Source: a virus
DNA: 15,144 nt
UHGV virus genome: UHGV-2113352
Direction: 5' to 3' (one strand)
The first letter of the stretch is position 1. Every line of letters begins with the position of its first letter. Shown in pieces: positions 1-14,559 of the stretch. The position numbers and the translations under genes were made by a program. The notes under the pieces were generated by a model, which saw only the letters and a program-made list of their open reading frames with translations, was not told where the DNA came from and searched no databases.

Positions 1-202
1 GCTTACCGCTCATGGGCACCTCTCTTTAAGTCATCTTAAATGACTCTGAGGTGTCTGTTAAACCTGTGGCGATTCATCCCAGATGAACGCTACCAACTTC
101 GACAAGAAAAAACATTGCCTATCTTAGCAAAGTTCAAAGCTTGGCTCGATTCTGTATTCCAACTTATTGATTACAACTAAAAACTGAATGACAATCTGAA
201 AA

Positions 203-694
203 TTAAAGAAAAATATTCATAGCCAAGAATCCGACACCTCCAGCCAACACCAAGATACCTAAAACAACTATGGTTCGTAGCCCGCTTATCGATCTTTGCT
301 GAGACTCCGCCGCCGCCTCTAACTTGCTTTTCAATTCCGCTAATTGTTTAGCAATGCGGCTATCACTTGCTGTGCAGCCTTGTTCAAACTGCTCAGGTGT
401 TACAAACTTCAAGGCTGCAACCTCACGCCTTAGTTTCAACTGTTCATCTTTGATCTGGCCTAGAAGATCATTTAGTGACATAAGGCGACCGTCAAACTCT
501 TCAAATTTATTCGAGTTCTTCGTAAACAATTCAGCGTGTTCATAAGCTAGATTTACGAGCGTTGATTTCGCAGCCTCTATCTCAGTTCTTGCATCGCTGA
601 CGGCGCTCAACAGGCCATTAAACTGTGCCACTTGCGTCGATTGCTCTTCGAGTGAATCGATTACCCGGTGTAGTTTCTGTATGTCATTCACCAA
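203..694 (-). CDS. Small coiled-coil protein with C-terminal transmembrane anchor; third gene of the candidate defence operon
   Basis: 163-aa ORF. Charged, Leu-rich, heptad-like central region followed by a hydrophobic C-terminal segment (TIVVLGILVLAGGVGFLAMNIFL). Its start (TTG 692-694 or GTG 689-691) overlaps the stop of the upstream giant gene (TGA 688-690). A Shine-Dalgarno-like AAGGGG lies on the minus strand at about 700-705. No family recognised. Confidence 0.6.
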   Translation of the reverse strand: MVNDIQKLHRVIDSLEEQSTQVAQFNGLLSAVSDARTEIEAAKSTLVNLAYEHAELFTKNSNKFEEFDGRLMSLNDLLGQIKDEQLKLRREVAALKFVTPEQFEQGCTASDSRIAKQLAELKSKLEAAAESQQRSISGLRTIVVLGILVLAGGVGFLAMNIFL

Positions 695-3600
695 TTAATC
701 CCCTTGTATAGGCTGGTAAGTTTTTCAAGTCTAATTGCCAGTGGAGCTAACAAAGTGTGATAGGAGAACGGATCTCCTAGCTCTTCATTTACTTCCCCAA
801 GAAAATCCAAATCTTCAAATTTCTCATGGACCAAACGAGCAAAGCGACTTCGCGCATTTTCAGAAAATATTGGTTTTAACTGCATAGTTTTTCGGACCAG
901 CTCTAGTGCTTCATCCCTATTATCACTGATCAACCGATCAAATGACGATGCCATTCTTCGCTCTCCATCTGCATCATCAAACTCATCGGAAGCTAGTCGC
1001 AGCACACCACTCAAGTAGTTCAAGAATGCATTATCTTTGTATGACTCTAGGAATCGAGAAATCTGACCTCGTAGGATCGTCATCTTCTCGCTGCTTACTA
1101 AATGTTCCGAGCCCTCTTCTTCATCAGTTTCAAAAAAAACTGATGGCCATAACCTCACCGACACAGAATTCTCAGCCATATTGAGCAAAAGTTGGCTCGA
1201 CTTGTCGTGTCTGAAATAACCCTCTAACTTCTCCTTAAATTCTTTACCATCCATCCTGCCTTCAGCAAATAAACTACAGTGTTCATAAACATTCTTCTGT
1301 GACTGGCGGCGGTTGTAGACAAAATGGTCATAGGACCAAAGTAAAAGAACAAGAAAGATAAATTGCGATTTATCGATAGACCCTTTTCTCAGCTTGTCGC
1401 AGAGAATTTTGTAGTACTGGTTATCACTACTGAACACATCAGCGAGCTTAAACTCAGGATCATACTTTCTGACGGTATGCTCAATTTTCTTTTCCAGGCC
1501 TTCTTCCGATAGGCACTGGAACTCGACAGAGAGCGTTCCATTAAAAAAGTCTTCGATTACCCAGTCAGAGACAATACCTAATTGAGAAAGGCGGTAGATA
1601 GCCTTTTCCAATTTAAACTTTTCCGTACCAAACTGCCTGGCAGTAATGGTCACCGTGTTGTGTTCCTGATTGTACTTAAAAAATTCGTATACATTTGCCA
1701 TCAACTTGAACTCATCATTGATTGTGTCCAAGCCGTTTGTCATCAGGAATAGATTTGTGTTCAGGTCGCTATCGCGACTCAATGACTTCACGTACTCCTT
1801 CAGATCTTTGACGTTCGTGCTAGCGTCCCAAATCTTGTCGAGAATAGCTGAATTGGGCTCTTTTGTGAGAAGCACATAGCAATCTGCGGGTACTTCCTTG
1901 AATAGTTTTTTATCTCGCCCTGCCCTGCCAGCTTCCTGATACAAGGCCTCCATCGACCCAGGTATTCCGAAGTGAACCGTATAGGCAATATTTCCCTTAT
2001 TCACGCCCATTCCGAATGCCTTAGTGGCAGTAAGTAGGCGGTATTTATTTTCTTTAAAATCGTCTTGAACTTGGCGCTTATATCTATCGAAAGCCTCTCC
2101 CTGCAATCCACCCATTTTCGGAGCCGACCCCGAAAAATATCTAACATCCATCTTCAAGAGTGTTGATATTCGGCCCGCTAAGCTATAACACCCCTTAGCT
2201 CCGTTGACGGTAGAAGTGAATATGATCCCCGCCTTATTGCCGTCTTCCCCATCTGAATTCCATTTACCCTCCATTTCAGAAACAAGCTCGACGACTGCAT
2301 CACCTTTACGGCCTTTATCGTCAATGACGTGGAATGATAGTTCCTCGCGAGTGAAGTCCATGGGGGTACGGACAAAATCATCTGGGATATCAAACTCTGT
2401 TTGAATATCCTTTAGGACGTTAACTGATGCTGTTGCCGTTAGACCTATATAACTCGCACTGGGAGCAAACCGTTCGATTGTATTTGCCAGGTTCAGATAA
2501 GAAGTCCTGAAATCATGTCCCCACTCAGACAAACAGTGAGCTTCATCGATCACCGCGTAGGCAAATGAGAGATCTAGTCCGATAGCCAACATCTCTTTTC
2601 TAAACGCATGGGTTTGGAATCGCTCAGGCGATATAAAAACGAAGAAGTACTTACCACGTCCGAAATCTCTCTGAACTTTGGCCTTCTCTCCTGCCTTCAA
2701 ATCACTTGTAATAAAATTGCTTCGAGTGAAGCCGATGCTATCCAAATCTGCTTTCTGGTCATACATCAAACTTTTTATCGGGCACACGACAAAGCTAACG
2801 GCTGGTTGCAGGACCGCAGACAGCTGGTAACAAATCGACTTACCCGAACCTGTAGGCAGCAATCCTATTGTGCCGTTTTTCGAAAGTGCAGATCCTATGA
2901 TACCAACCTGCCCTTCCCTGAAATCTACATCCTCTAGGTATGGTAGAAACAGGTTGCTGAGGAAGTATCTCAGCGACTCTCTCTGCTCGCTGCCTGGGCT
3001 AAGATCTAGCTTGTAGGTAATGGGGTTACTACATGAAAGCTCGAAAAAGTCATAGTCAATCAATTGACTGGTTTCTATTGAAACAGCATCAGAATCTTCG
3101 AAGTTTCGATAGAAATCGAAGTAATCCGTACGTGAATATATGACGTCTTGGTTAACTTGAAAGGAATCGTCATAACGCTCCAGTAAGCTGAAGTCGATGA
3201 ATATATTTTCACCAGACCGTTCGCTCGGAAGCTCATCTGATTCGATCAGCGCAACCTCAATTCGCTTTTCTTCAATGCCGATGAGACGAAAGATATTCGA
3301 TAACAAATCGTTCAGGTCGTCCAGTGCCGCTTCAGCAAAATCAGTTCCATCACGATTGACTATGAATAGTTTTTTCAACTCCCCTAGTCTGATCTGACCG
3401 CGTTCAAGAAGCTCTAATAACAGTATCTGGAAACGCAACGCCGAGGTCAGCCTCAATCGCGAGTCAGTAACATCGACTCCATTTTCATAAGCCTCTTGGT
3501 AATTCAATAAAGAAATACCATTAGGAGGCGTTAGGACACCATTTCGCTCTAGACTATCAACGAGCTGAATTTGAGAAATAATCGAATTTATCTTACTGAT

Positions 3601-5364
3601 AAATGACTGATTCTCAGATGCCACTTCTCGAACAGTGAAACGAACTGTCTTCAGTCCCAAGGTTTCAGTAAACGCATCCCTCATCTCATCTAAATGCTGA
3701 GAATTTTGGTGCTGTTGACCATCTATCTCAATAATTAAACCAACTTGAGGAATGTAAAAATCTACCTGTCGGTTCTGGAATTGTTCAACGTAGACCTGAG
3801 TCATATCGTAAATCTGAACTTCAGGGAGCATTAGTTGTTTTACAAAAATGTACTCACCGAAATACTTTGGAATCAGCTCATCAAAAAACCTTTTCGCTGG
3901 GTAGTACCCAGAATGCTTGTTGCCTCGAATCAATCTATTCCAAAAAACTGGCTTATCTGACACAAGAGCCTGAGCTGATGTATTAAGACCGCTCTTCTCC
4001 AGTTCAATGCCAAATGCCTTCCTCAGTTTCCGCGAGGCTATTGTTGGCTTCCCTCTCTGAAGCATATTCTTAAGAACTTGAATTGCTGCAAATAGCTGTC
4101 CAGACGCCGCTTCAGACGAGATAGAATACTGGAGAAGATTGTGGAAAATGAAGTTATGGTTGGTTCTCGCGTAGTTAGCAGAAAACTTCTTGCTTACAAG
4201 CCTGCTACTAGACTTCGACCTGACATGTCTAGATAGTTCACTTTCGTCCGCCAGCGAGTCGATGATTGGGTTGTACAAATCTGAAAACAGTTGGTTATTG
4301 TGTTGTTGTTCTTGGCTGTCAGTGCCTAGCTCCAATCTATAGAGAGTTTTAACCAACGTAAAAATGTAAATACTTGAATTCGGAAAAGCTTGAGATAGAC
4401 AGCGTGTTATCTCATCAGTTGTAGCCCCCGAAGTTAATACGTCGTCAATGATCAGAAATGTCGGATTTGAATTAGCTTCTATTGAATCAAAATCGGCTTT
4501 ATAGGCACCTCTGACCTGGTGGAGTCTTTGTGCTGCAGTGCAATTAGTCGATTTATCTAATACGTGATCTTTCTCTAATATCTTAGGTTGGTAAGAAGCC
4601 CCTAAAGCAACAGCCAGCGATTTGCCCAAGGTATCTAATGCTTTATCGTCATCTTCAGCCCTAAGCTCAGCGTGACCTAACGCTCGAACAACTATATCTA
4701 TGGCTGGGAATGAAGGAGCTAGCTCAACAGTCTTGTTAACCCAGCGGCGAACAGAAGTATTCTTGTTATCCTTGAAAGACCAAACTTCCTGTTTGATACC
4801 ATCTAAATAGAATCCCAGATGAAGTTTATTCCCAGATTGTATTAACTCAGAACGTCCAGTTCTTGCGGAGCTCCGCGTCGAGTTTTTTCCAATAAGCTCG
4901 GAGAGACTGCTTATTCCCTTATGTGACGAATCGATCTCCGAGGCAGAACCCCAATCTACTGAGAAAAACTCAACTCCTGCATTGGAAGCAGCGTCTCGAT
5001 CTAGGTTACTATCTCCTAAATAAATTGACTCGTCGGCGCTAACACCGAAGTACTCGAGAATACGAGTAACGCCCTCAGGGCTCGGCTTATGCTGCGTTAC
5101 ATCATGGTAGGCTACTACATAATCAACAGTGATACTGAAGTGTTTGAGTAGCCCCTGAACGTAGTTCGAAGGCGCATTCGAGAAGATAGCAACCTTGATT
5201 CCAACCGACCGAGCCGTTGTAACAAGGCCGACAACGTCCTGATTGATGACACAACCATTAAAGTACCTGGGTATGTCTCTCCATCGGCCAGCTGACCGAA
5301 GTGGTTCGAGGCTTGATGTATCAATAAGCGTGTCATCAAGATCGAGGACGATGACCTTTATCAC
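688..5364 (-). CDS. Giant multidomain protein: N-terminal HAD-type phosphatase, phosphoribosyltransferase (PRTase), DUF559 (Vsr-like) endonuclease-like domain, RecQ-like SF2 helicase, and an unassigned ~400-aa C-terminal region
   Basis: 1558-aa uninterrupted ORF. HAD motif I LDLDDTL (aa 7-13) and motif IV GDSNLD (aa 117-122), nt about 4945-5364. PRTase PRPP-binding motif FLIIDDVLTSGATT (aa 303-316, nt 4417-4458). DUF559-type motif VDFYIPQVGLIIEIDGQQH followed by ..RD..L..G..RF (aa 534-577, nt about 3565-3957). RecQ-type helicase motifs: Walker A LPTGSGKS (aa 836-843, nt 2836-2859, checked against DNA), VIDEAHCLSEWGHDFR (aa 938-953, checked), LTATA (aa 975-979), YQEAGRAGRD (aa 1142-1151). GTG start at 5362-5364 overlaps the TGA stop of the upstream DprA-like gene (GTGA); SD-like AAGGTGG sits 6 nt upstream. 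Confidence 0.85.
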   Translation of the reverse strand: MIKVIVLDLDDTLIDTSSLEPLRSAGRWRDIPRYFNGCVINQDVVGLVTTARSVGIKVAIFSNAPSNYVQGLLKHFSITVDYVVAYHDVTQHKPSPEGVTRILEYFGVSADESIYLGDSNLDRDAASNAGVEFFSVDWGSASEIDSSHKGISSLSELIGKNSTRSSARTGRSELIQSGNKLHLGFYLDGIKQEVWSFKDNKNTSVRRWVNKTVELAPSFPAIDIVVRALGHAELRAEDDDKALDTLGKSLAVALGASYQPKILEKDHVLDKSTNCTAAQRLHQVRGAYKADFDSIEANSNPTFLIIDDVLTSGATTDEITRCLSQAFPNSSIYIFTLVKTLYRLELGTDSQEQQHNNQLFSDLYNPIIDSLADESELSRHVRSKSSSRLVSKKFSANYARTNHNFIFHNLLQYSISSEAASGQLFAAIQVLKNMLQRGKPTIASRKLRKAFGIELEKSGLNTSAQALVSDKPVFWNRLIRGNKHSGYYPAKRFFDELIPKYFGEYIFVKQLMLPEVQIYDMTQVYVEQFQNRQVDFYIPQVGLIIEIDGQQHQNSQHLDEMRDAFTETLGLKTVRFTVREVASENQSFISKINSIISQIQLVDSLERNGVLTPPNGISLLNYQEAYENGVDVTDSRLRLTSALRFQILLLELLERGQIRLGELKKLFIVNRDGTDFAEAALDDLNDLLSNIFRLIGIEEKRIEVALIESDELPSERSGENIFIDFSLLERYDDSFQVNQDVIYSRTDYFDFYRNFEDSDAVSIETSQLIDYDFFELSCSNPITYKLDLSPGSEQRESLRYFLSNLFLPYLEDVDFREGQVGIIGSALSKNGTIGLLPTGSGKSICYQLSAVLQPAVSFVVCPIKSLMYDQKADLDSIGFTRSNFITSDLKAGEKAKVQRDFGRGKYFFVFISPERFQTHAFRKEMLAIGLDLSFAYAVIDEAHCLSEWGHDFRTSYLNLANTIERFAPSASYIGLTATASVNVLKDIQTEFDIPDDFVRTPMDFTREELSFHVIDDKGRKGDAVVELVSEMEGKWNSDGEDGNKAGIIFTSTVNGAKGCYSLAGRISTLLKMDVRYFSGSAPKMGGLQGEAFDRYKRQVQDDFKENKYRLLTATKAFGMGVNKGNIAYTVHFGIPGSMEALYQEAGRAGRDKKLFKEVPADCYVLLTKEPNSAILDKIWDASTNVKDLKEYVKSLSRDSDLNTNLFLMTNGLDTINDEFKLMANVYEFFKYNQEHNTVTITARQFGTEKFKLEKAIYRLSQLGIVSDWVIEDFFNGTLSVEFQCLSEEGLEKKIEHTVRKYDPEFKLADVFSSDNQYYKILCDKLRKGSIDKSQFIFLVLLLWSYDHFVYNRRQSQKNVYEHCSLFAEGRMDGKEFKEKLEGYFRHDKSSQLLLNMAENSVSVRLWPSVFFETDEEEGSEHLVSSEKMTILRGQISRFLESYKDNAFLNYLSGVLRLASDEFDDADGERRMASSFDRLISDNRDEALELVRKTMQLKPIFSENARSRFARLVHEKFEDLDFLGEVNEELGDPFSYHTLLAPLAIRLEKLTSLYKGINW

Positions 5365-6347
5365 AGCAGGCCACCTTTTGCTTTCAATGACCCAAATGAA
5401 CTCGCGATATCTTCTAATTGAAGACGAATATCTTCATAAGATTCGCTCGTGTATGGTATCGCCCTCCCTTCGTTAACTAGCTGTTGAGTTCCTGAAATTG
5501 CCTTGATAGTAAGATCTGGATACTTAGCTTTATGTACGTCAGGAACGAAGACAGGACGCATCATAGAGATAGCAGATTTGACTGCGTGCATCGTCCCACC
5601 ATCTATCGAAGTTTCAATAGCAAAGACGGCAGTAGATAAACCTGCTTGTATCCTGTCTCGCTTAGCAAAGAACGCAGGTATTGCTTTGGTTCCTGGTGCA
5701 TTCTCTGCAACTAGAAGTCCGCCCTCGTCCAATATTTCCTTAGCGAGTTCCCGATTACTTGCGGGAGAAATAGACTCCACATCGACAAGAACAGAAATCG
5801 TTGGTGTTTTGGCATCTAATGCCGCGCGATGAGCAATTGTATCGATACCCAGTGCAAGTCCACTGACTATCGTGAAGCCATAAGTCGCAAACTTTTGAAT
5901 AGTTTTAATCGTTAGGGTTTCACCCTTGGGGGTATTTTCACGAGTTCCTACAACAGCTAATGAAAGCCTATTCTCTAAGAGATTTAGATTGCCTTTACAG
6001 TAAAGAAAGGGTGGAGGTTTTGGGAGATCATATAACGAAATTGGATAGTTTTTCGAACCGAAGATAACAATCTCAACTCCTTTATTTTTGAACGAATCAA
6101 TCTCTGTTTTTACTTCGTCCCTGAGAGCCTGGAAGTTCGCAGCGTCGAAGAAACTTTCGAGAGTTGCTCGAGATTTACCATTTGAGATTTTCAGATTGGA
6201 GGAGTTACGTACCAGTTCTTCGAGTGTTGACACTCCGCTGTACGCTGAAAACTTTAAGATTGACAGAACAGTTTCATCACCAACGCTCATTAACTTCTTG
6301 AGAACAAGAGCATCTACAATGTTCACTTCTCCCCCAAAGAACGACAA
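5361..6347 (-). CDS. DprA/Smf-like (SLOG superfamily) Rossmann-fold protein; first gene of the candidate defence operon
   Basis: 328-aa ORF. The central region (LAVVGTRENTPKGE..IVSGLALGIDTIAHRAAL..TISVLV..GGLLVAENAPGT..FFAKRDRIQAGLS..VFAIETSIDGGTMHAV) follows the conserved pattern of the DprA Rossmann domain (GxR.., SGLAxGID..AH..AL, FxxRNRiIaGLS, ..SG). The first start on the track is TTG at 6345-6347; the true start may be the downstream GTG (codon 8) or ATG (codon 20). Confidence 0.75.
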   Translation of the reverse strand: MSFFGGEVNIVDALVLKKLMSVGDETVLSILKFSAYSGVSTLEELVRNSSNLKISNGKSRATLESFFDAANFQALRDEVKTEIDSFKNKGVEIVIFGSKNYPISLYDLPKPPPFLYCKGNLNLLENRLSLAVVGTRENTPKGETLTIKTIQKFATYGFTIVSGLALGIDTIAHRAALDAKTPTISVLVDVESISPASNRELAKEILDEGGLLVAENAPGTKAIPAFFAKRDRIQAGLSTAVFAIETSIDGGTMHAVKSAISMMRPVFVPDVHKAKYPDLTIKAISGTQQLVNEGRAIPYTSESYEDIRLQLEDIASSFGSLKAKGGLL

Positions 6348-6460
6348 TTTTTAGTCCATTTACCATGCAGATTAATTGTATTCGACCAAGAACACAACAC
6401 AAACAAATATAGAATCGCCACGGATAATTTAGACACTTCCGAGCCGTTGATAATACTGGT

Positions 6461-10159: not shown

Positions 10160-10897
10160 TTGGATAAGGCTAAATACTATGTTTACTGTCTCTATGATAC
10201 AGAAGACAAGATGAAAAGACCGTTTTACATAGGAAAAGGCAAATCGACTCGTTGTCTCGATCACATCAAGTATCCCGATGACTCTCCCAAATCCATGCGG
10301 ATCAAAGAACTTTTGGCTAATAAAAAATTAGGCATAGATATTCTTCGTCATGGTATGGATGAAACCACAGCCAAACTTGTTGAGGCGACATGCATCGACC
10401 TTATGGGGGTCGGAGAGCTTACGAATAAGGTACGAGGAAGTGGTTCCATGATGGGCAGAATATCACTGGACGCCTACCATCACTTAGTGCTGCAAGAGGA
10501 AACTGAAATTGCTCCTGAGCACGCCGGTCTTGCCTTCCTGCTAAACAGCACCTACAAGTCAGGAATGTCCGCTCTGGCATTATATGAAGCTACGCGTGGC
10601 GTATGGGCAAAGGTTCCAAGAGACGAGAATCTCAAATATGCCTACGCTACATATGGGGGCCTGATAATGGAAGTTTATCAGATTGAATGCTGGGTCAAAG
10701 CCGGTTCTCAGCAGTACTTTACAAGGGATATAGCTCTTGGCCCCGACACAAAACGTTATGAATTTGTTGGCAGAATAGCCGATGAGCATATTAGAAAACT
10801 GTATGTAGGCAAATTAATCAAGAAGCCACCAAGCTACGGCAGCCCTTTTGTGAAGGTTGGGGTGGTTAGGAATGAACATAGTGTTAGCGCGGCATAA
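10160..10897 (+). CDS. Hypothetical protein with an N-terminal GIY-YIG-like nuclease motif
   Basis: 245-aa ORF, the only long plus-strand gene in this region and divergent from the replication operon. N-terminus YYVYCLYD..KRPFYIGKGKSTRCLDH fits the GIY-(10-11)-YIG-..R..H pattern of GIY-YIG nucleases. The C-terminal ~150 aa is unassigned. Confidence 0.4.
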   Translation: MDKAKYYVYCLYDTEDKMKRPFYIGKGKSTRCLDHIKYPDDSPKSMRIKELLANKKLGIDILRHGMDETTAKLVEATCIDLMGVGELTNKVRGSGSMMGRISLDAYHHLVLQEETEIAPEHAGLAFLLNSTYKSGMSALALYEATRGVWAKVPRDENLKYAYATYGGLIMEVYQIECWVKAGSQQYFTRDIALGPDTKRYEFVGRIADEHIRKLYVGKLIKKPPSYGSPFVKVGVVRNEHSVSAA

Positions 10898-12296: not shown

Positions 12297-12566
12297 ATGT
12301 CCGCACTGAAAAAGCAGCGCATCGATTTGAGATTAACCGATGACGATAAAAGCATCATCGAGGAAGCTGCCGCAATGTCTAACCAGAGCATTACCCAGTT
12401 CATGGTTAGCAGTGCATCCGAACGTGCCGTGAAGGTGATAGAGCAACACCGTAGACTGGTTCTAAGTGAAGAGTCCTGGAATCTGGTTATGGATGCTATA
12501 AGCAATCCTCCGGCACCGAACGACAAGCTGAAACGAGCTGCCAATCGTCTGAAAAGCATGGAGTAA
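12297..12566 (+). CDS. DUF1778 (RHH-type) antitoxin of a GNAT toxin-antitoxin pair (TacA/AtaR-like)
   Basis: 89-aa ORF MSALKKQRIDLRLTDDDKSIIEEAAA..SNPPAPNDKLKRAANRLKSME closely matches the TacA/AtaR antitoxin family as I remember it. Sits 7 nt upstream of the GNAT toxin gene. AGGGGG SD before the ATG. Confidence 0.8.
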   Translation: MSALKKQRIDLRLTDDDKSIIEEAAAMSNQSITQFMVSSASERAVKVIEQHRRLVLSEESWNLVMDAISNPPAPNDKLKRAANRLKSME

Positions 12567-12573
12567 TTTACTC

Positions 12574-13095
12574 GTGAGCAATACGACGATCGAGATTTTC
12601 TCTGGAGAGAACGATTATGATCTAAACGGTTTTGATTGCGGCGAAGAGTCACTAAACGCATTTTTGACCAACCACTTAAAAAGACAGCATGAAGGAAAAA
12701 TTCTTCGCGCTTATGTGCTTTGCACTAAAGAAGAAATACCAAAGGTATTAGGTTATTACACTTTGTCAGGCAGCTGCTTTGAGAAAGAAACCTTACCTTC
12801 AAAGAGTCAGCAAAAGAAAGTGCCTTATCGGAATGTCCCAAGTATCACTTTAGGCAGACTGGCTTTGGACAAATCTCTTCAAGGTCAGGGGCTTGGCTCA
12901 ATGCTTGTAACTCACGCAATGCGTGTTGTGTACAATGCATCTCTTGCGGTAGGCATTCATGGGCTTTTCGTTGAGGCGTTGAACGATAAAGCCAGGGCGT
13001 TTTATAAAAGTTTGGGCTTTATCCAGCTGGTTGGTAACAACGATCGTTCTTTGTTCTATCCAACAAAATCTATCGAAAAATTGTTCGAAGAATAA
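12574..13095 (+). CDS. GNAT-family acetyltransferase toxin (TacT/AtaT-like, aminoacyl-tRNA acetylating)
   Basis: 173-aa ORF with GTG start. Acetyl-CoA binding motif QGQGLGSMLV; size and the upstream DUF1778 antitoxin are typical of TacAT/AtaRT/KacAT modules. Confidence 0.8.
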   Translation: MSNTTIEIFSGENDYDLNGFDCGEESLNAFLTNHLKRQHEGKILRAYVLCTKEEIPKVLGYYTLSGSCFEKETLPSKSQQKKVPYRNVPSITLGRLALDKSLQGQGLGSMLVTHAMRVVYNASLAVGIHGLFVEALNDKARAFYKSLGFIQLVGNNDRSLFYPTKSIEKLFEE

Positions 13096-13517: not shown

Positions 13518-14237
13518 TTACACTAATCCTTTCTGGTGCTTGCGAACCTGGGACCAGGCAATGAATGCTGCCACAAGAATGGTAGCTACGCCAAAGATGA
13601 TGCGTACCGTATCTCCACTGGAGATATTGCCTTGCGCTTTATCCATTGCGGCAGAAACTTGAGGCATAACGTCAGCAATTTGTGCAAGGCCAATACCTGC
13701 AGTGACTGTAGCACCTGTGGTTTCTTTTGTTACTGGAACGGCTTTTACAGCCTTTACCGGTTTGACAATGCCGGCACGTCGCAGACCTTCTTCGATAAGT
13801 TCTGGTGTATACCAGCTATTGGGAGTTTTCAGCGGACCTCGGCCATTTTCATGTCTAATGATCGCCTCTACCAGCGGTCTTAAGGTCTCGTAGTCATGCA
13901 GATCGATAATCATATCTGGTGCTACTCCAACGGCTTTGGATACCTCGTTCACATAAGCCAAAGTGTTGTTCTCATGTGGAGGCGCCCAGCGTTCGATGAC
14001 TTCGCGGATCGTATCAATGCTGGAGCCATCTTTTGCGCGGCGCTTGTCGTGGTAAGTAATGAGTGTCACTGCCAATGCCCGAATCCCCCACACGGGGTCT
14101 TTAAACGTGCAGAAGCGCGGTTCTGAAGAGTTGTTGACTAAGCCCTGCCACGGCGCTCCTTTATCAAGATTACCGGGGTTGTTATTACGAATGCCTCTCG
14201 GAGTTTTCATCCTTGATCTCCTGTTATTGCAATCCAT
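13518..14237 (-). CDS. Hypothetical membrane-anchored protein; candidate lysis enzyme (endolysin-like) by position only
   Basis: 239-aa ORF with ATG at 14235-14237. Conserved-looking N-terminal motif RGIRNNNPGNL; C-terminal hydrophobic helix VRIIFGVATILVAAFIAWSQV. Located between a small membrane protein gene and the spanin-like pair. No catalytic family could be assigned by eye. Confidence 0.5.
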   Translation of the reverse strand: MDCNNRRSRMKTPRGIRNNNPGNLDKGAPWQGLVNNSSEPRFCTFKDPVWGIRALAVTLITYHDKRRAKDGSSIDTIREVIERWAPPHENNTLAYVNEVSKAVGVAPDMIIDLHDYETLRPLVEAIIRHENGRGPLKTPNSWYTPELIEEGLRRAGIVKPVKAVKAVPVTKETTGATVTAGIGLAQIADVMPQVSAAMDKAQGNISSGDTVRIIFGVATILVAAFIAWSQVRKHQKGLV

Positions 14238-14559
14238 TTTTTACGCCATACGCGGCCAATCCTAAAAGCAGTACGGTAATAATGAACGACGTTATTTTCG
14301 AAACAATGCCGCCAAAGAACCCACTGGAGATGGTGTCGAGCCGGTTAAGAAGTTTGTCCAGATTGGAGTGCTGAATGCTGTATTGTGCGGGCGTCATATC
14401 GCCAAAGTAGGTTTTGAGCTGGTCATTGACCTCCTGACCAATTTCCTCGCGTATTTCTTTACCTAATTTGCCTACGACTTCCCGAGCAACGATTGAGGCG
14501 ATGCGCTCAACCTGTTCAGTTGTGACTCCCGCCATCTCGTTCGACATGTTTTCCTCCAT
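14224..14559 (-). CDS. Small membrane protein, candidate holin or antiholin (positional inference)
   Basis: 111-aa ORF with ATG at 14557-14559. Hydrophilic N-terminal ~75 aa and a single C-terminal transmembrane helix ITSFIITVLLLGLAAYGV. Overlaps the next gene by 14 nt. Confidence 0.45.
   Translation of the reverse strand: MEENMSNEMAGVTTEQVERIASIVAREVVGKLGKEIREEIGQEVNDQLKTYFGDMTPAQYSIQHSNLDKLLNRLDTISSGFFGGIVSKITSFIITVLLLGLAAYGVKNGLQ

Follow-up and report, generated by a model that had tools for sequence, protein, structure and literature searches.

The viral genome UHGV-2113352 carries, within the 15,144-nucleotide stretch analyzed here (the window), a cassette of three overlapping genes on the minus strand: a DprA-like gene, a giant gene of 1558 codons and, last, a small gene (203..691) whose predicted product, a coiled-coil protein with a C-terminal membrane anchor, is the subject of this work. 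The small gene begins at the very end of the giant gene, and our main finding is that the small protein is an obligate or near-obligate partner of the nuclease-helicase core of the giant protein. The features of the cassette are collected in Table 1.

Table 1. Small gene, upstream genes and their domains in the window (aa, amino acids; nt, nucleotides).
Feature	Position	Strand	Description
Small gene (predicted tail-anchored coiled-coil protein)	203..691	minus	GTG start 691, stop TAA 205..203; 162 aa; alternative start TTG 694
Predicted C-terminal transmembrane anchor	206..274	minus	codons 140-162; ends at the last residue; Kyte-Doolittle 2.47
FVTPEQFEQG hinge motif	377..406	minus	codons 96-105; breaks the helix; 1-3 copies in relatives
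Conserved N-terminal head	572..691	minus	codons 1-40; M-x-D-I-x-K-L-x-x-V-I-x-x-L-E-E-Q-S...E-F-N-G-V-L; candidate docking surface
GTGA start/stop overlap of giant and small genes	688..691	minus	GTG 691..689 over TGA 690..688; 4 nt
AAGGGG Shine-Dalgarno-like sequence	700..705	minus	within the giant gene, 8 nt before the GTG
Giant-protein C-terminal domain	691..1884	minus	aa 1161-1558; winged helix + all-helical region; family-specific; always adjoins the small gene
RecQ-family superfamily 2 helicase core	1906..2928	minus	aa 813-1153; PsyrT 6e-61; recQ_fam 223.6 bits
DUF559/Vsr-like endonuclease domain	3562..3828	minus	aa 513-601; DUF559 1.4e-9; mREase_II 2.3e-9; in short forms too
Phosphoribosyltransferase domain, ShosT/ComFC-like	4318..4647	minus	aa 240-349; ShosT 1.3e-7; GntX 2.8e-7; long form only
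HAD-type phosphatase domain	4930..5358	minus	aa 3-145; long form only
DprA-like gene (ShosA/PsyrA-like putative antitoxin)	5361..6347	minus	4-nt overlap onto the giant gene start; long-form loci only

The open reading frame of the small gene spans 203..694 on the minus strand, and a start at TTG 694 would yield the 163 residues given in the initial annotation. However, in plasmid pLAO18 (99.4% identical) the RefSeq coding sequence starts at GTG 691 (WP_023135651.1, 162 aa, “hypothetical protein”), and in more distant relatives GTG or ATG is the sole start option at this position. We therefore take the small protein to have 162 residues and not 163; the TTG start would also make the overlap with the giant gene 7 nt instead of 4 nt. 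The giant gene ends in TAC AAG GGG ATT AAT TGG TGA, while the small gene opens, in the −1 frame relative to it, with TTG GTG AAT GAC. Thus, the GTGA overlap and the AAGGGG sequence 8 nt upstream confirm the earlier proposal that the small gene starts at the stop codon of the giant gene and has its own Shine-Dalgarno sequence in the upstream coding sequence, and similar purine runs lie at the equivalent place in proteobacterial relatives. The DprA-like gene likewise overlaps the giant gene by 4 nt (5361..5364), and since both gene pairs overlap, all three genes of the cassette appear to be coupled. Scans for promoters and terminators around the small gene gave signals at chance level only. A spurious reading frame is ruled out by conservation in more than 100 loci, by the ratio of nonsynonymous to synonymous substitution rates (dN/dS, or omega) and by the RefSeq coding sequence.

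We then considered the architecture of the small protein, which had been described as a long coiled coil followed by a single C-terminal transmembrane helix. Hydropathy, heptad statistics and AlphaFold2 agree on this prediction. The Kyte-Doolittle profile (19-residue window) peaks at a mean of 2.47 at residues 140-158, with a hydrophobic run that reaches the last residue, and exceeds 1.0 in no window before residue 131, indicating a single hydrophobic segment. The hydrophobicity score of heptad positions a and d is 0.50, compared with 0.26 ± 0.04 in shuffled sequences (z = 5.6; reached by 0 of 1000 shuffles). AlphaFold2, supplied with 13 homologues, predicts helices at residues 3-92 and 99-161 with a break at 93-98 (predicted local distance difference test score 73.5), the second helix continuing into the anchor. 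Across the family, the 10 residues preceding the anchor contain on average 2.2 lysines and arginines, versus 0.45 after it, where 0-11 residues (mean 1.4) remain. Because of this positive-inside bias, the N-terminus is placed in the cytoplasm, and the small protein is predicted to be a tail-anchored inner-membrane protein with only 0-4 residues past the membrane. It shows the features of the C-tail-anchored topology class, namely a single C-terminal transmembrane helix, no signal peptide and no further hydrophobic segment. The bacterial proteins ElaB, YqjD and YgaM belong to this class too, having a helical cytoplasmic domain, a lone transmembrane helix at the C-terminus and no signal peptide (PMC6389858), but these are chromosomal stress proteins and not partners in a helicase operon. 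No DUF883 homology of the small protein was found, Pfam returning only weak, chance-level matches at E ≤ 0.1. A sequence-profile search of the PDB gave only apolipoprotein and haemagglutinin coiled coils (E > 0.02), and a Foldseek search against the PDB gave nothing below E = 1.

No family had been recognized for the small protein in the initial annotation. This is correct for Pfam, NCBIfam and PADLOC, where our searches yielded only coiled-coil noise (e.g., JetC at 4.7e-5), whereas PHROGs contains it as phrog_28492, of unknown function; the giant protein and the DprA-like protein correspond to phrog_33220 and phrog_4299, respectively. A word-indexed search retrieved 56 relatives, most of them 70-93% identical, and those with a named source are all gammaproteobacterial. 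A profile search against 1.84 billion cluster representatives (50% identity) extended the family to 82 members at E ≤ 1e-3, 63 of them at E ≤ 1e-10, nearly all 155-225 aa long and matching end to end. A scan of viral contigs gave one locus, near-identical to the window, and a metagenome scan with the gammaproteobacterial alignment (A1) gave no match. The anchor is present in essentially every full-length member, 0-11 residues from the C-terminus. Under closer inspection, conservation is distributed unevenly along the protein: the head, i.e., the first 40 residues, is the most conserved part (2.57 bits per column), followed by the stalk with 1.3-1.9 bits and the anchor with 1.47, of which only the hydrophobicity is kept. 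Among 51 diverse members (16-47% identical to the window protein), L7 is invariant, and L14, E15 and F24 are present in at least 90%. The middle region varies in both sequence and length and contains one to three copies of the motif [FL]xTPEQ[FY]; two or three copies are found, for instance, in P0093, P0097 and P0123. The overall length of family members ranges from 105 to 379 aa, always with the anchor last, and stalk length thus evolves freely. In long members of 229-379 aa the anchor is still terminal (L045 9163..10302, L106 619..1548, L107 536..1378 and L031 9161..9850). One 150-aa member from a Campylobacterota metagenome-assembled genome (L047 2325..2777) has no anchor and is separated from the helicase gene by a 21-nt gap; it may be truncated or decaying. 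Among gammaproteobacterial copies, the dN/dS of the small gene is mostly 0.25-0.6.

Absence of the small gene from homologous operons would refute the initial proposal. The family-specific domain of the giant protein, its last 398 residues, served as query against genomes limited to one per species, and the resulting 45 loci belong to Gamma-, Beta- and Alphaproteobacteria, Desulfobacterota, Campylobacterota, Bacteroidota, Ignavibacteriota, Chlorobiota and Bacillota. At 43 of them, the helicase gene is followed on its own strand by a gene that fits the small-protein profile, in 42 of these with a C-terminal anchor. The contigs of the remaining two end less than 500 nt past the helicase stop, so that all 43 scorable loci are positive and the small gene is indeed a conserved component of the operon. 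In 41 of 42 loci, the start of the small gene and the stop of the helicase gene share 4-38 nt; in Marinomonas primoryensis a 56-nt gap takes the place of the overlap. This conserved start/stop overlap argues for co-production of the two proteins and for a stable complex between them. The reverse scan, in which an alignment of the Bacteroidota-type small protein served as query, recovered 80 metagenome loci, 69 of them with enough upstream sequence. Directly upstream lies the helicase C-terminal domain in 61 of the 69 by a strict rule and in 67 when six further loci with partial matches and long variants (280-309 aa) are counted. Of the two exceptions, one (L093) has an IS4-type transposase inserted upstream and the other (L128) is a remnant. 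A fusion of helicase and small protein was seen in none of the forward-scan and metagenome loci. The only other conserved neighbor is DprA, solely in the loci with the long form of the giant gene.

The operons fall into two architectures. In the long form, a protein of ~1560 aa combines HAD, phosphoribosyltransferase (PRTase), DUF559, RecQ-like helicase and C-terminal domains and is preceded by a DprA-like gene; it occurs in gammaproteobacteria, Advenella, Desulfopila, a Chloroherpeton metagenome-assembled genome and one other such genome. The short form (~1090-1200 aa) consists of DUF559, helicase and C-terminal domain and has no HAD, PRTase or DprA, yet keeps the small gene. All Bacteroidota, Ignavibacteriota, Bacillota and alphaproteobacterial loci as well as all 80 metagenome loci are of this type. 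The invariant core is therefore the DUF559 nuclease and RecQ-like helicase protein plus the small protein. In a crude, midpoint-rooted neighbor-joining tree of ~1080 shared columns, short forms make up the deepest branches, with the long forms nested inside, which suggests that the ancestral unit was a nuclease-helicase with an anchored protein. By this tree, the ShosT-like HAD-PRTase part and the DprA-like gene would be later additions in one part of the family. The small protein is therefore not specifically a component of the ShosTA/PsyrTA-like toxin-antitoxin part of the operon: its partner is the nuclease-helicase core, and a specific partnership with the ShosTA/PsyrTA part is rejected by the many relatives, the majority, in which PRTase, HAD and DprA are missing.

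How, then, does the cassette of the window relate to known systems? By homology, the nearest described ones are ShosTA and PsyrTA/RqlHI, each consisting of two genes and neither having a membrane component (bioRxiv 10.1101/2022.05.11.491447; PMC11961720; PMC12961424). Catalytic signatures of the domains are present in the translation of the giant gene: DLDDT for the HAD domain, IIDDVLTSGAT for the PRTase, and PTGSGKS and DEAH...WGHDFR for the helicase. The match to the RecQ family model TIGR00614 (recQ_fam) scores above the cut-off (223.6 versus 219.8 bits), and the DEAH/SxWGHDFR motifs are seen as VIDEAHCLSEWGHDFR. In the C-terminal domain, a winged helix is predicted to be followed by a helical region of ~270 residues, for which structure searches gave nothing specific, and the DprA-like protein matches Pfam DNA_processg_A (1.9e-53) and the PADLOC models ShosA (6.8e-68) and PsyrA (1.5e-28). 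The cassette resembles ShosTA in its DprA-like first gene (ShosA 6.8e-68), in the intact phosphoribosyl pyrophosphate-binding motif of the PRTase in the next gene (ShosT 1.3e-7) and in the overlap of the genes. In ShosTA, a small toxin that stands alone, the PRTase/pyrophosphatase ShosT, is paired with the DNA-binding antitoxin ShosA (PMC11961720, PMC12961424), and the word “transmembrane” occurs zero times in these two papers. ShosTA thus comprises two genes and a stand-alone toxin, whereas here three genes overlap, the third one encoding a predicted membrane-anchored protein; moreover, the ShosT match covers model positions 110-215 of 237, and the PRTase makes up ~7% of a multidomain protein of 1558 aa. 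With PsyrTA/RqlHI, the cassette shares a RecQ-like helicase and a PRTase in one polypeptide (PsyrT 6e-61) and a DprA-like partner (PsyrA 1.5e-28). However, RqlH is a 690-aa protein in which an N-terminal helicase is followed by a C-terminal PRTase, and its gene lies before rqlI (PMC4670107), while here the PRTase comes before the helicase, the protein is 1558 aa long, the DprA gene is first, and HAD, DUF559 and C-terminal domains are added together with a tail-anchored third protein. Because domain order, size and the embedded PRTase differ, the cassette fits the definition of neither system, and its domain content identifies it as a hybrid of three genes, in which a ShosTA/PsyrTA-type module is joined to the helicase/anchor pair.

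A different assignment is raised by PADLOC, whose model PDLC02868 (“DpdF”) matches aa 469-1471 of the giant protein at 7.7e-113 and would point to the Dpd system of 7-deazaguanine DNA modification and restriction. However, the NCBIfam equivalog of DpdF (NF041063) reaches 139 bits against a cut-off of 550, and no other dpd gene is found in the window or conserved near the examined loci, so that a Dpd system is rejected. The same model (1078 positions) covers a short-form nuclease-helicase (L035 5664..9185) almost end to end (3.7e-116), with no dpd genes nearby; PDLC02868 was probably built from a cluster that includes the nuclease-helicase family.

The genomic surroundings of the family bear on its possible role in defense. 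Among 115 neighbors of 31 loci are BrxC, prokaryotic Argonaute (pAgo) with SIR2, AbiEi/AbiEii, subunits of type I restriction-modification systems, DarT/NADAR (DarTG), integrases and four PADLOC candidate families. Type I restriction-modification, BrxC, pAgo-SIR2, AbiE and DarTG genes adjoin some of the short-form loci. These neighborhoods suggest a resemblance to defense islands, the counts being given without a matched background.

Taken together, we favor, tentatively and with somewhat less than even confidence, the reading that the small protein is a membrane tether or adaptor of the nuclease-helicase. The head would dock onto the helicase protein, and its most plausible site there is the family-specific helical C-terminal domain, whose coding sequence ends at the overlap. 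A stalk of variable length, probably oligomeric, would be built from the heptad-repeat helices, and the hydrophobic tail, generic in sequence, would hold the complex at the inner side of the membrane, the place where DNA of phages or conjugative elements enters the cytoplasm. Zorya offers a precedent, its membrane complex recruiting nuclease effectors through a long cytoplasmic coiled-coil tail (PMC11946911). In the window, a ShosT-like toxin module of HAD and PRTase has been added to the helicase protein, and a DprA-like antitoxin gene to the operon; the whole is cargo of an SSU5-like phage-plasmid. This reading is favored because the head is conserved, the length of the stalk varies and the anchor keeps only its hydrophobicity, and because the large protein already carries enzymes able to harm DNA or nucleotide pools (nuclease and PRTase). 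The long form also joins DprA, a ComFC-like PRTase (GntX 2.8e-7) and a helicase. In natural competence, a trio of DprA, ComFC and helicase acts on incoming DNA, and this parallel has been drawn for RqlHI (PMC4670107, PMC5512222). By analogy only, it agrees with an action on DNA entering the cell.

Several points nevertheless weigh against a tether. Small single-pass membrane proteins of other defense systems are often the killers. In addition, the small protein changes more quickly in evolution (omega 0.25-0.6) than does the helicase (0.15-0.26). Between the window (203..691) and the Klebsiella copy (L002 5126..5614), there are 12 amino acid changes in the small protein at a dS of ~0.03, giving an omega of ~1.2-1.8, compared with 0.22-0.26 for the giant gene. 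This excess in the window lineage involves few sites and could reflect relaxed or diversifying selection or a sensor or effector exposed to the phage. Furthermore, many of the 115 neighbors are housekeeping genes, and the association with defense islands is moderate. Finally, we infer the binding of the two proteins, the location of the helicase at the membrane and the function in defense, and the choice of the C-terminal domain as docking site is conjecture.

The small protein had initially been proposed as a possible effector or sensor, its architecture resembling that of membrane-targeting effector modules in abortive-infection systems. Of this proposal, the parts stating that the protein is real, translationally coupled, tail-anchored and conserved hold up, whereas its pattern of conservation is more in keeping with a tether or adaptor than with an effector that forms pores. 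As an effector, the small protein would be freed or activated once the helicase senses phage DNA, oligomerize through its coiled coil and permeabilize the inner membrane. A single transmembrane helix next to an oligomerization-prone coiled coil would suit this role, as would LAGGVGF, a small-xxx-small stretch found in gammaproteobacterial anchors, and the short-form pair has no separate antitoxin gene. However, we consider it unlikely: the sequence of the anchor is poorly conserved, neither a periplasmic segment nor a second one in the membrane is present, conservation is concentrated in the cytoplasmic head, a nuclease (and here also a PRTase) is already available as effector in the partner protein, and a more than threefold variation in stalk length would be odd for a defined pore.

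Equally unlikely, in our estimate, is a membrane-resident sensor or trigger, in which a perturbation of the envelope or the entry of DNA would be signaled along the coiled coil to switch on the nuclease-helicase, making the small protein a minimal counterpart of ZorAB or KwaA. A parallel is Zorya, the closest described system in logic, where the long coiled-coil tail of the ZorAB membrane complex recruits the DNA-binding and nuclease effectors ZorC and ZorD (PMC11946911). The likeness is one of function and logic only, a membrane component with a long cytoplasmic coiled coil being paired with a nucleic acid enzyme. The faster evolution of the small protein than of its partner and the excess of amino acid changes in the window lineage would be consistent with a sensor, and the conserved hinge motif could be its switch. 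ZorAB, however, works as a proton-driven 5:2 motor and contains a peptidoglycan-binding domain, while the small protein has one transmembrane helix, no periplasmic part and, with the 0-11 residues past the membrane, no room for a periplasmic sensing domain. PADLOC gave no match to ZorA, ZorB or KwaA for the small protein or its relatives. The sensor reading also overlaps with that of a tether, and sequence cannot separate the two.

Alternatively, the small protein might be an inhibitory partner, akin to a sequestration-type antitoxin, that keeps the nuclease-helicase inactive at the membrane until its loss or turnover during infection frees the enzyme. The tight translational coupling and the two-gene layout are like those of toxin-antitoxin pairs, and no further gene of the short form is a candidate for immunity. 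We nevertheless regard it as improbable, given that there is no sign of instability or of a protease-target tail, that the long form already has a DprA-like antitoxin candidate and that L093 retains the small gene after an insertion sequence interrupted the upstream region, a single case. A DNA uptake or repair apparatus in place of immunity, which would process single-stranded DNA entering the cell and thereby serve the mobile element, is very improbable: although the strong DprA domain, the PRTase region (GntX, a ComFC homologue, 2.8e-7) and the helicase mirror DprA/ComFC/ComFA, a parallel also noted for RqlHI (PMC4670107, PMC5512222), and although the cassette resides in conjugative and phage-plasmid elements, most family members have neither DprA nor PRTase, the Vsr-like nuclease domain is always present, and the related two-gene systems ShosTA and PsyrTA have been shown to defend against phages (bioRxiv 10.1101/2022.05.11.491447; PMC11961720).

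Returning to the favored tether or adaptor, its wider meaning lies in the pair. The components are familiar, while their conserved pairing and the small-protein family are undescribed: the full-text literature, with most subscription journals outside its coverage, gave no paper linking DUF559, RecQ and anti-phage activity, or tail-anchored proteins and anti-phage helicases. The pairing, kept across many bacterial phyla, points to an undescribed module of two genes that would act at the cell membrane and is probably anti-phage. A broader proposal, which we think possible but on balance doubtful, is that the Vsr-like nuclease/RecQ-like helicase and the tail-anchored protein form a phylum-spanning immune module in which a single-pass anchor with a variable stalk positions, and possibly gates, a DNA-degrading helicase at the inner membrane face to intercept entering DNA. 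Such a module would be a minimal counterpart of Zorya, and in one lineage it would have captured a ShosT-like PRTase/HAD toxin and a DprA antitoxin, which produced the three-gene hybrid of the window. ShosTA and PsyrTA are regarded as two-gene cytosolic toxin-antitoxin defenses, and here a related PRTase/DprA module is joined to a nuclease-helicase with a constant membrane anchor. The helicase/anchor pair alone is widespread yet unnamed in Proteobacteria, Bacteroidota, Ignavibacteriota and Bacillota, and it supplies annotation pipelines with a gene-pair signature and a new, defined family. Should the tether model hold, the pair would offer a very simple system for studying how a helicase-nuclease defense is localized at the site of DNA entry, since one protein of 160 residues can be shortened, lengthened or re-anchored.

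With respect to its carrier, the window is an SSU5-like phage-plasmid, with primase, DnaB-like, ParA, tail-fiber-assembly and endolysin genes that have their matches in SSU5-type phages and in Escherichia coli IncFIB “plasmids.” The cassette (~78..6400) has a GC content of 41-45%, versus 48-52% in the adjoining backbone, and most related plasmids are without it, their match beginning only at 6408. The same cassette is found at ~97.5% identity in Klebsiella plasmids, flanked by insertion sequences. Of 5426 complete E. coli genomes, only 7 carry it. In a Vibrio integrative and conjugative element of the SXT/R391 type, it lies between traN and the ssb-bet-exo genes (traN-s063), a position known as hotspot 4 (PMC2791158).

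At the downstream end of the small gene, bases 1..77 of the window are 100% identical to the annotated ISEhe3 orfA sequence in Shigella phage SfIV and so appear to be derived from an insertion sequence. They adjoin, at ~78..180, what is left of an IS66-family transposase gene, which moves together with the cassette; in the Vibrio loci L004-L006 the small gene is likewise followed by this 42-aa PF03050 fragment. The mobile unit has its right-hand limit here. Elsewhere in the window, a 245-aa GIY-YIG protein (10160..10897, plus strand) matches PD-T4-3 in PADLOC (1.9e-23) and LEM-3_GIY-YIG in Pfam (5e-7) and is a second candidate defense gene. A TacA-like antitoxin (12297..12566, plus strand; Pfam TacA1 3.5e-26) followed directly by a GNAT acetyltransferase (12574..13095, plus strand) looks like a TacAT-type pair. 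On the minus strand, an endolysin-like protein with a hydrophobic C-terminal segment (13518..14237; phrog_873, 3e-86) is preceded by an overlapping gene (14224..14559) for a 111-aa protein with a hydrophobic C-terminal end (phrog_5093), and these two are likely the lysis genes of the SSU5-type backbone.

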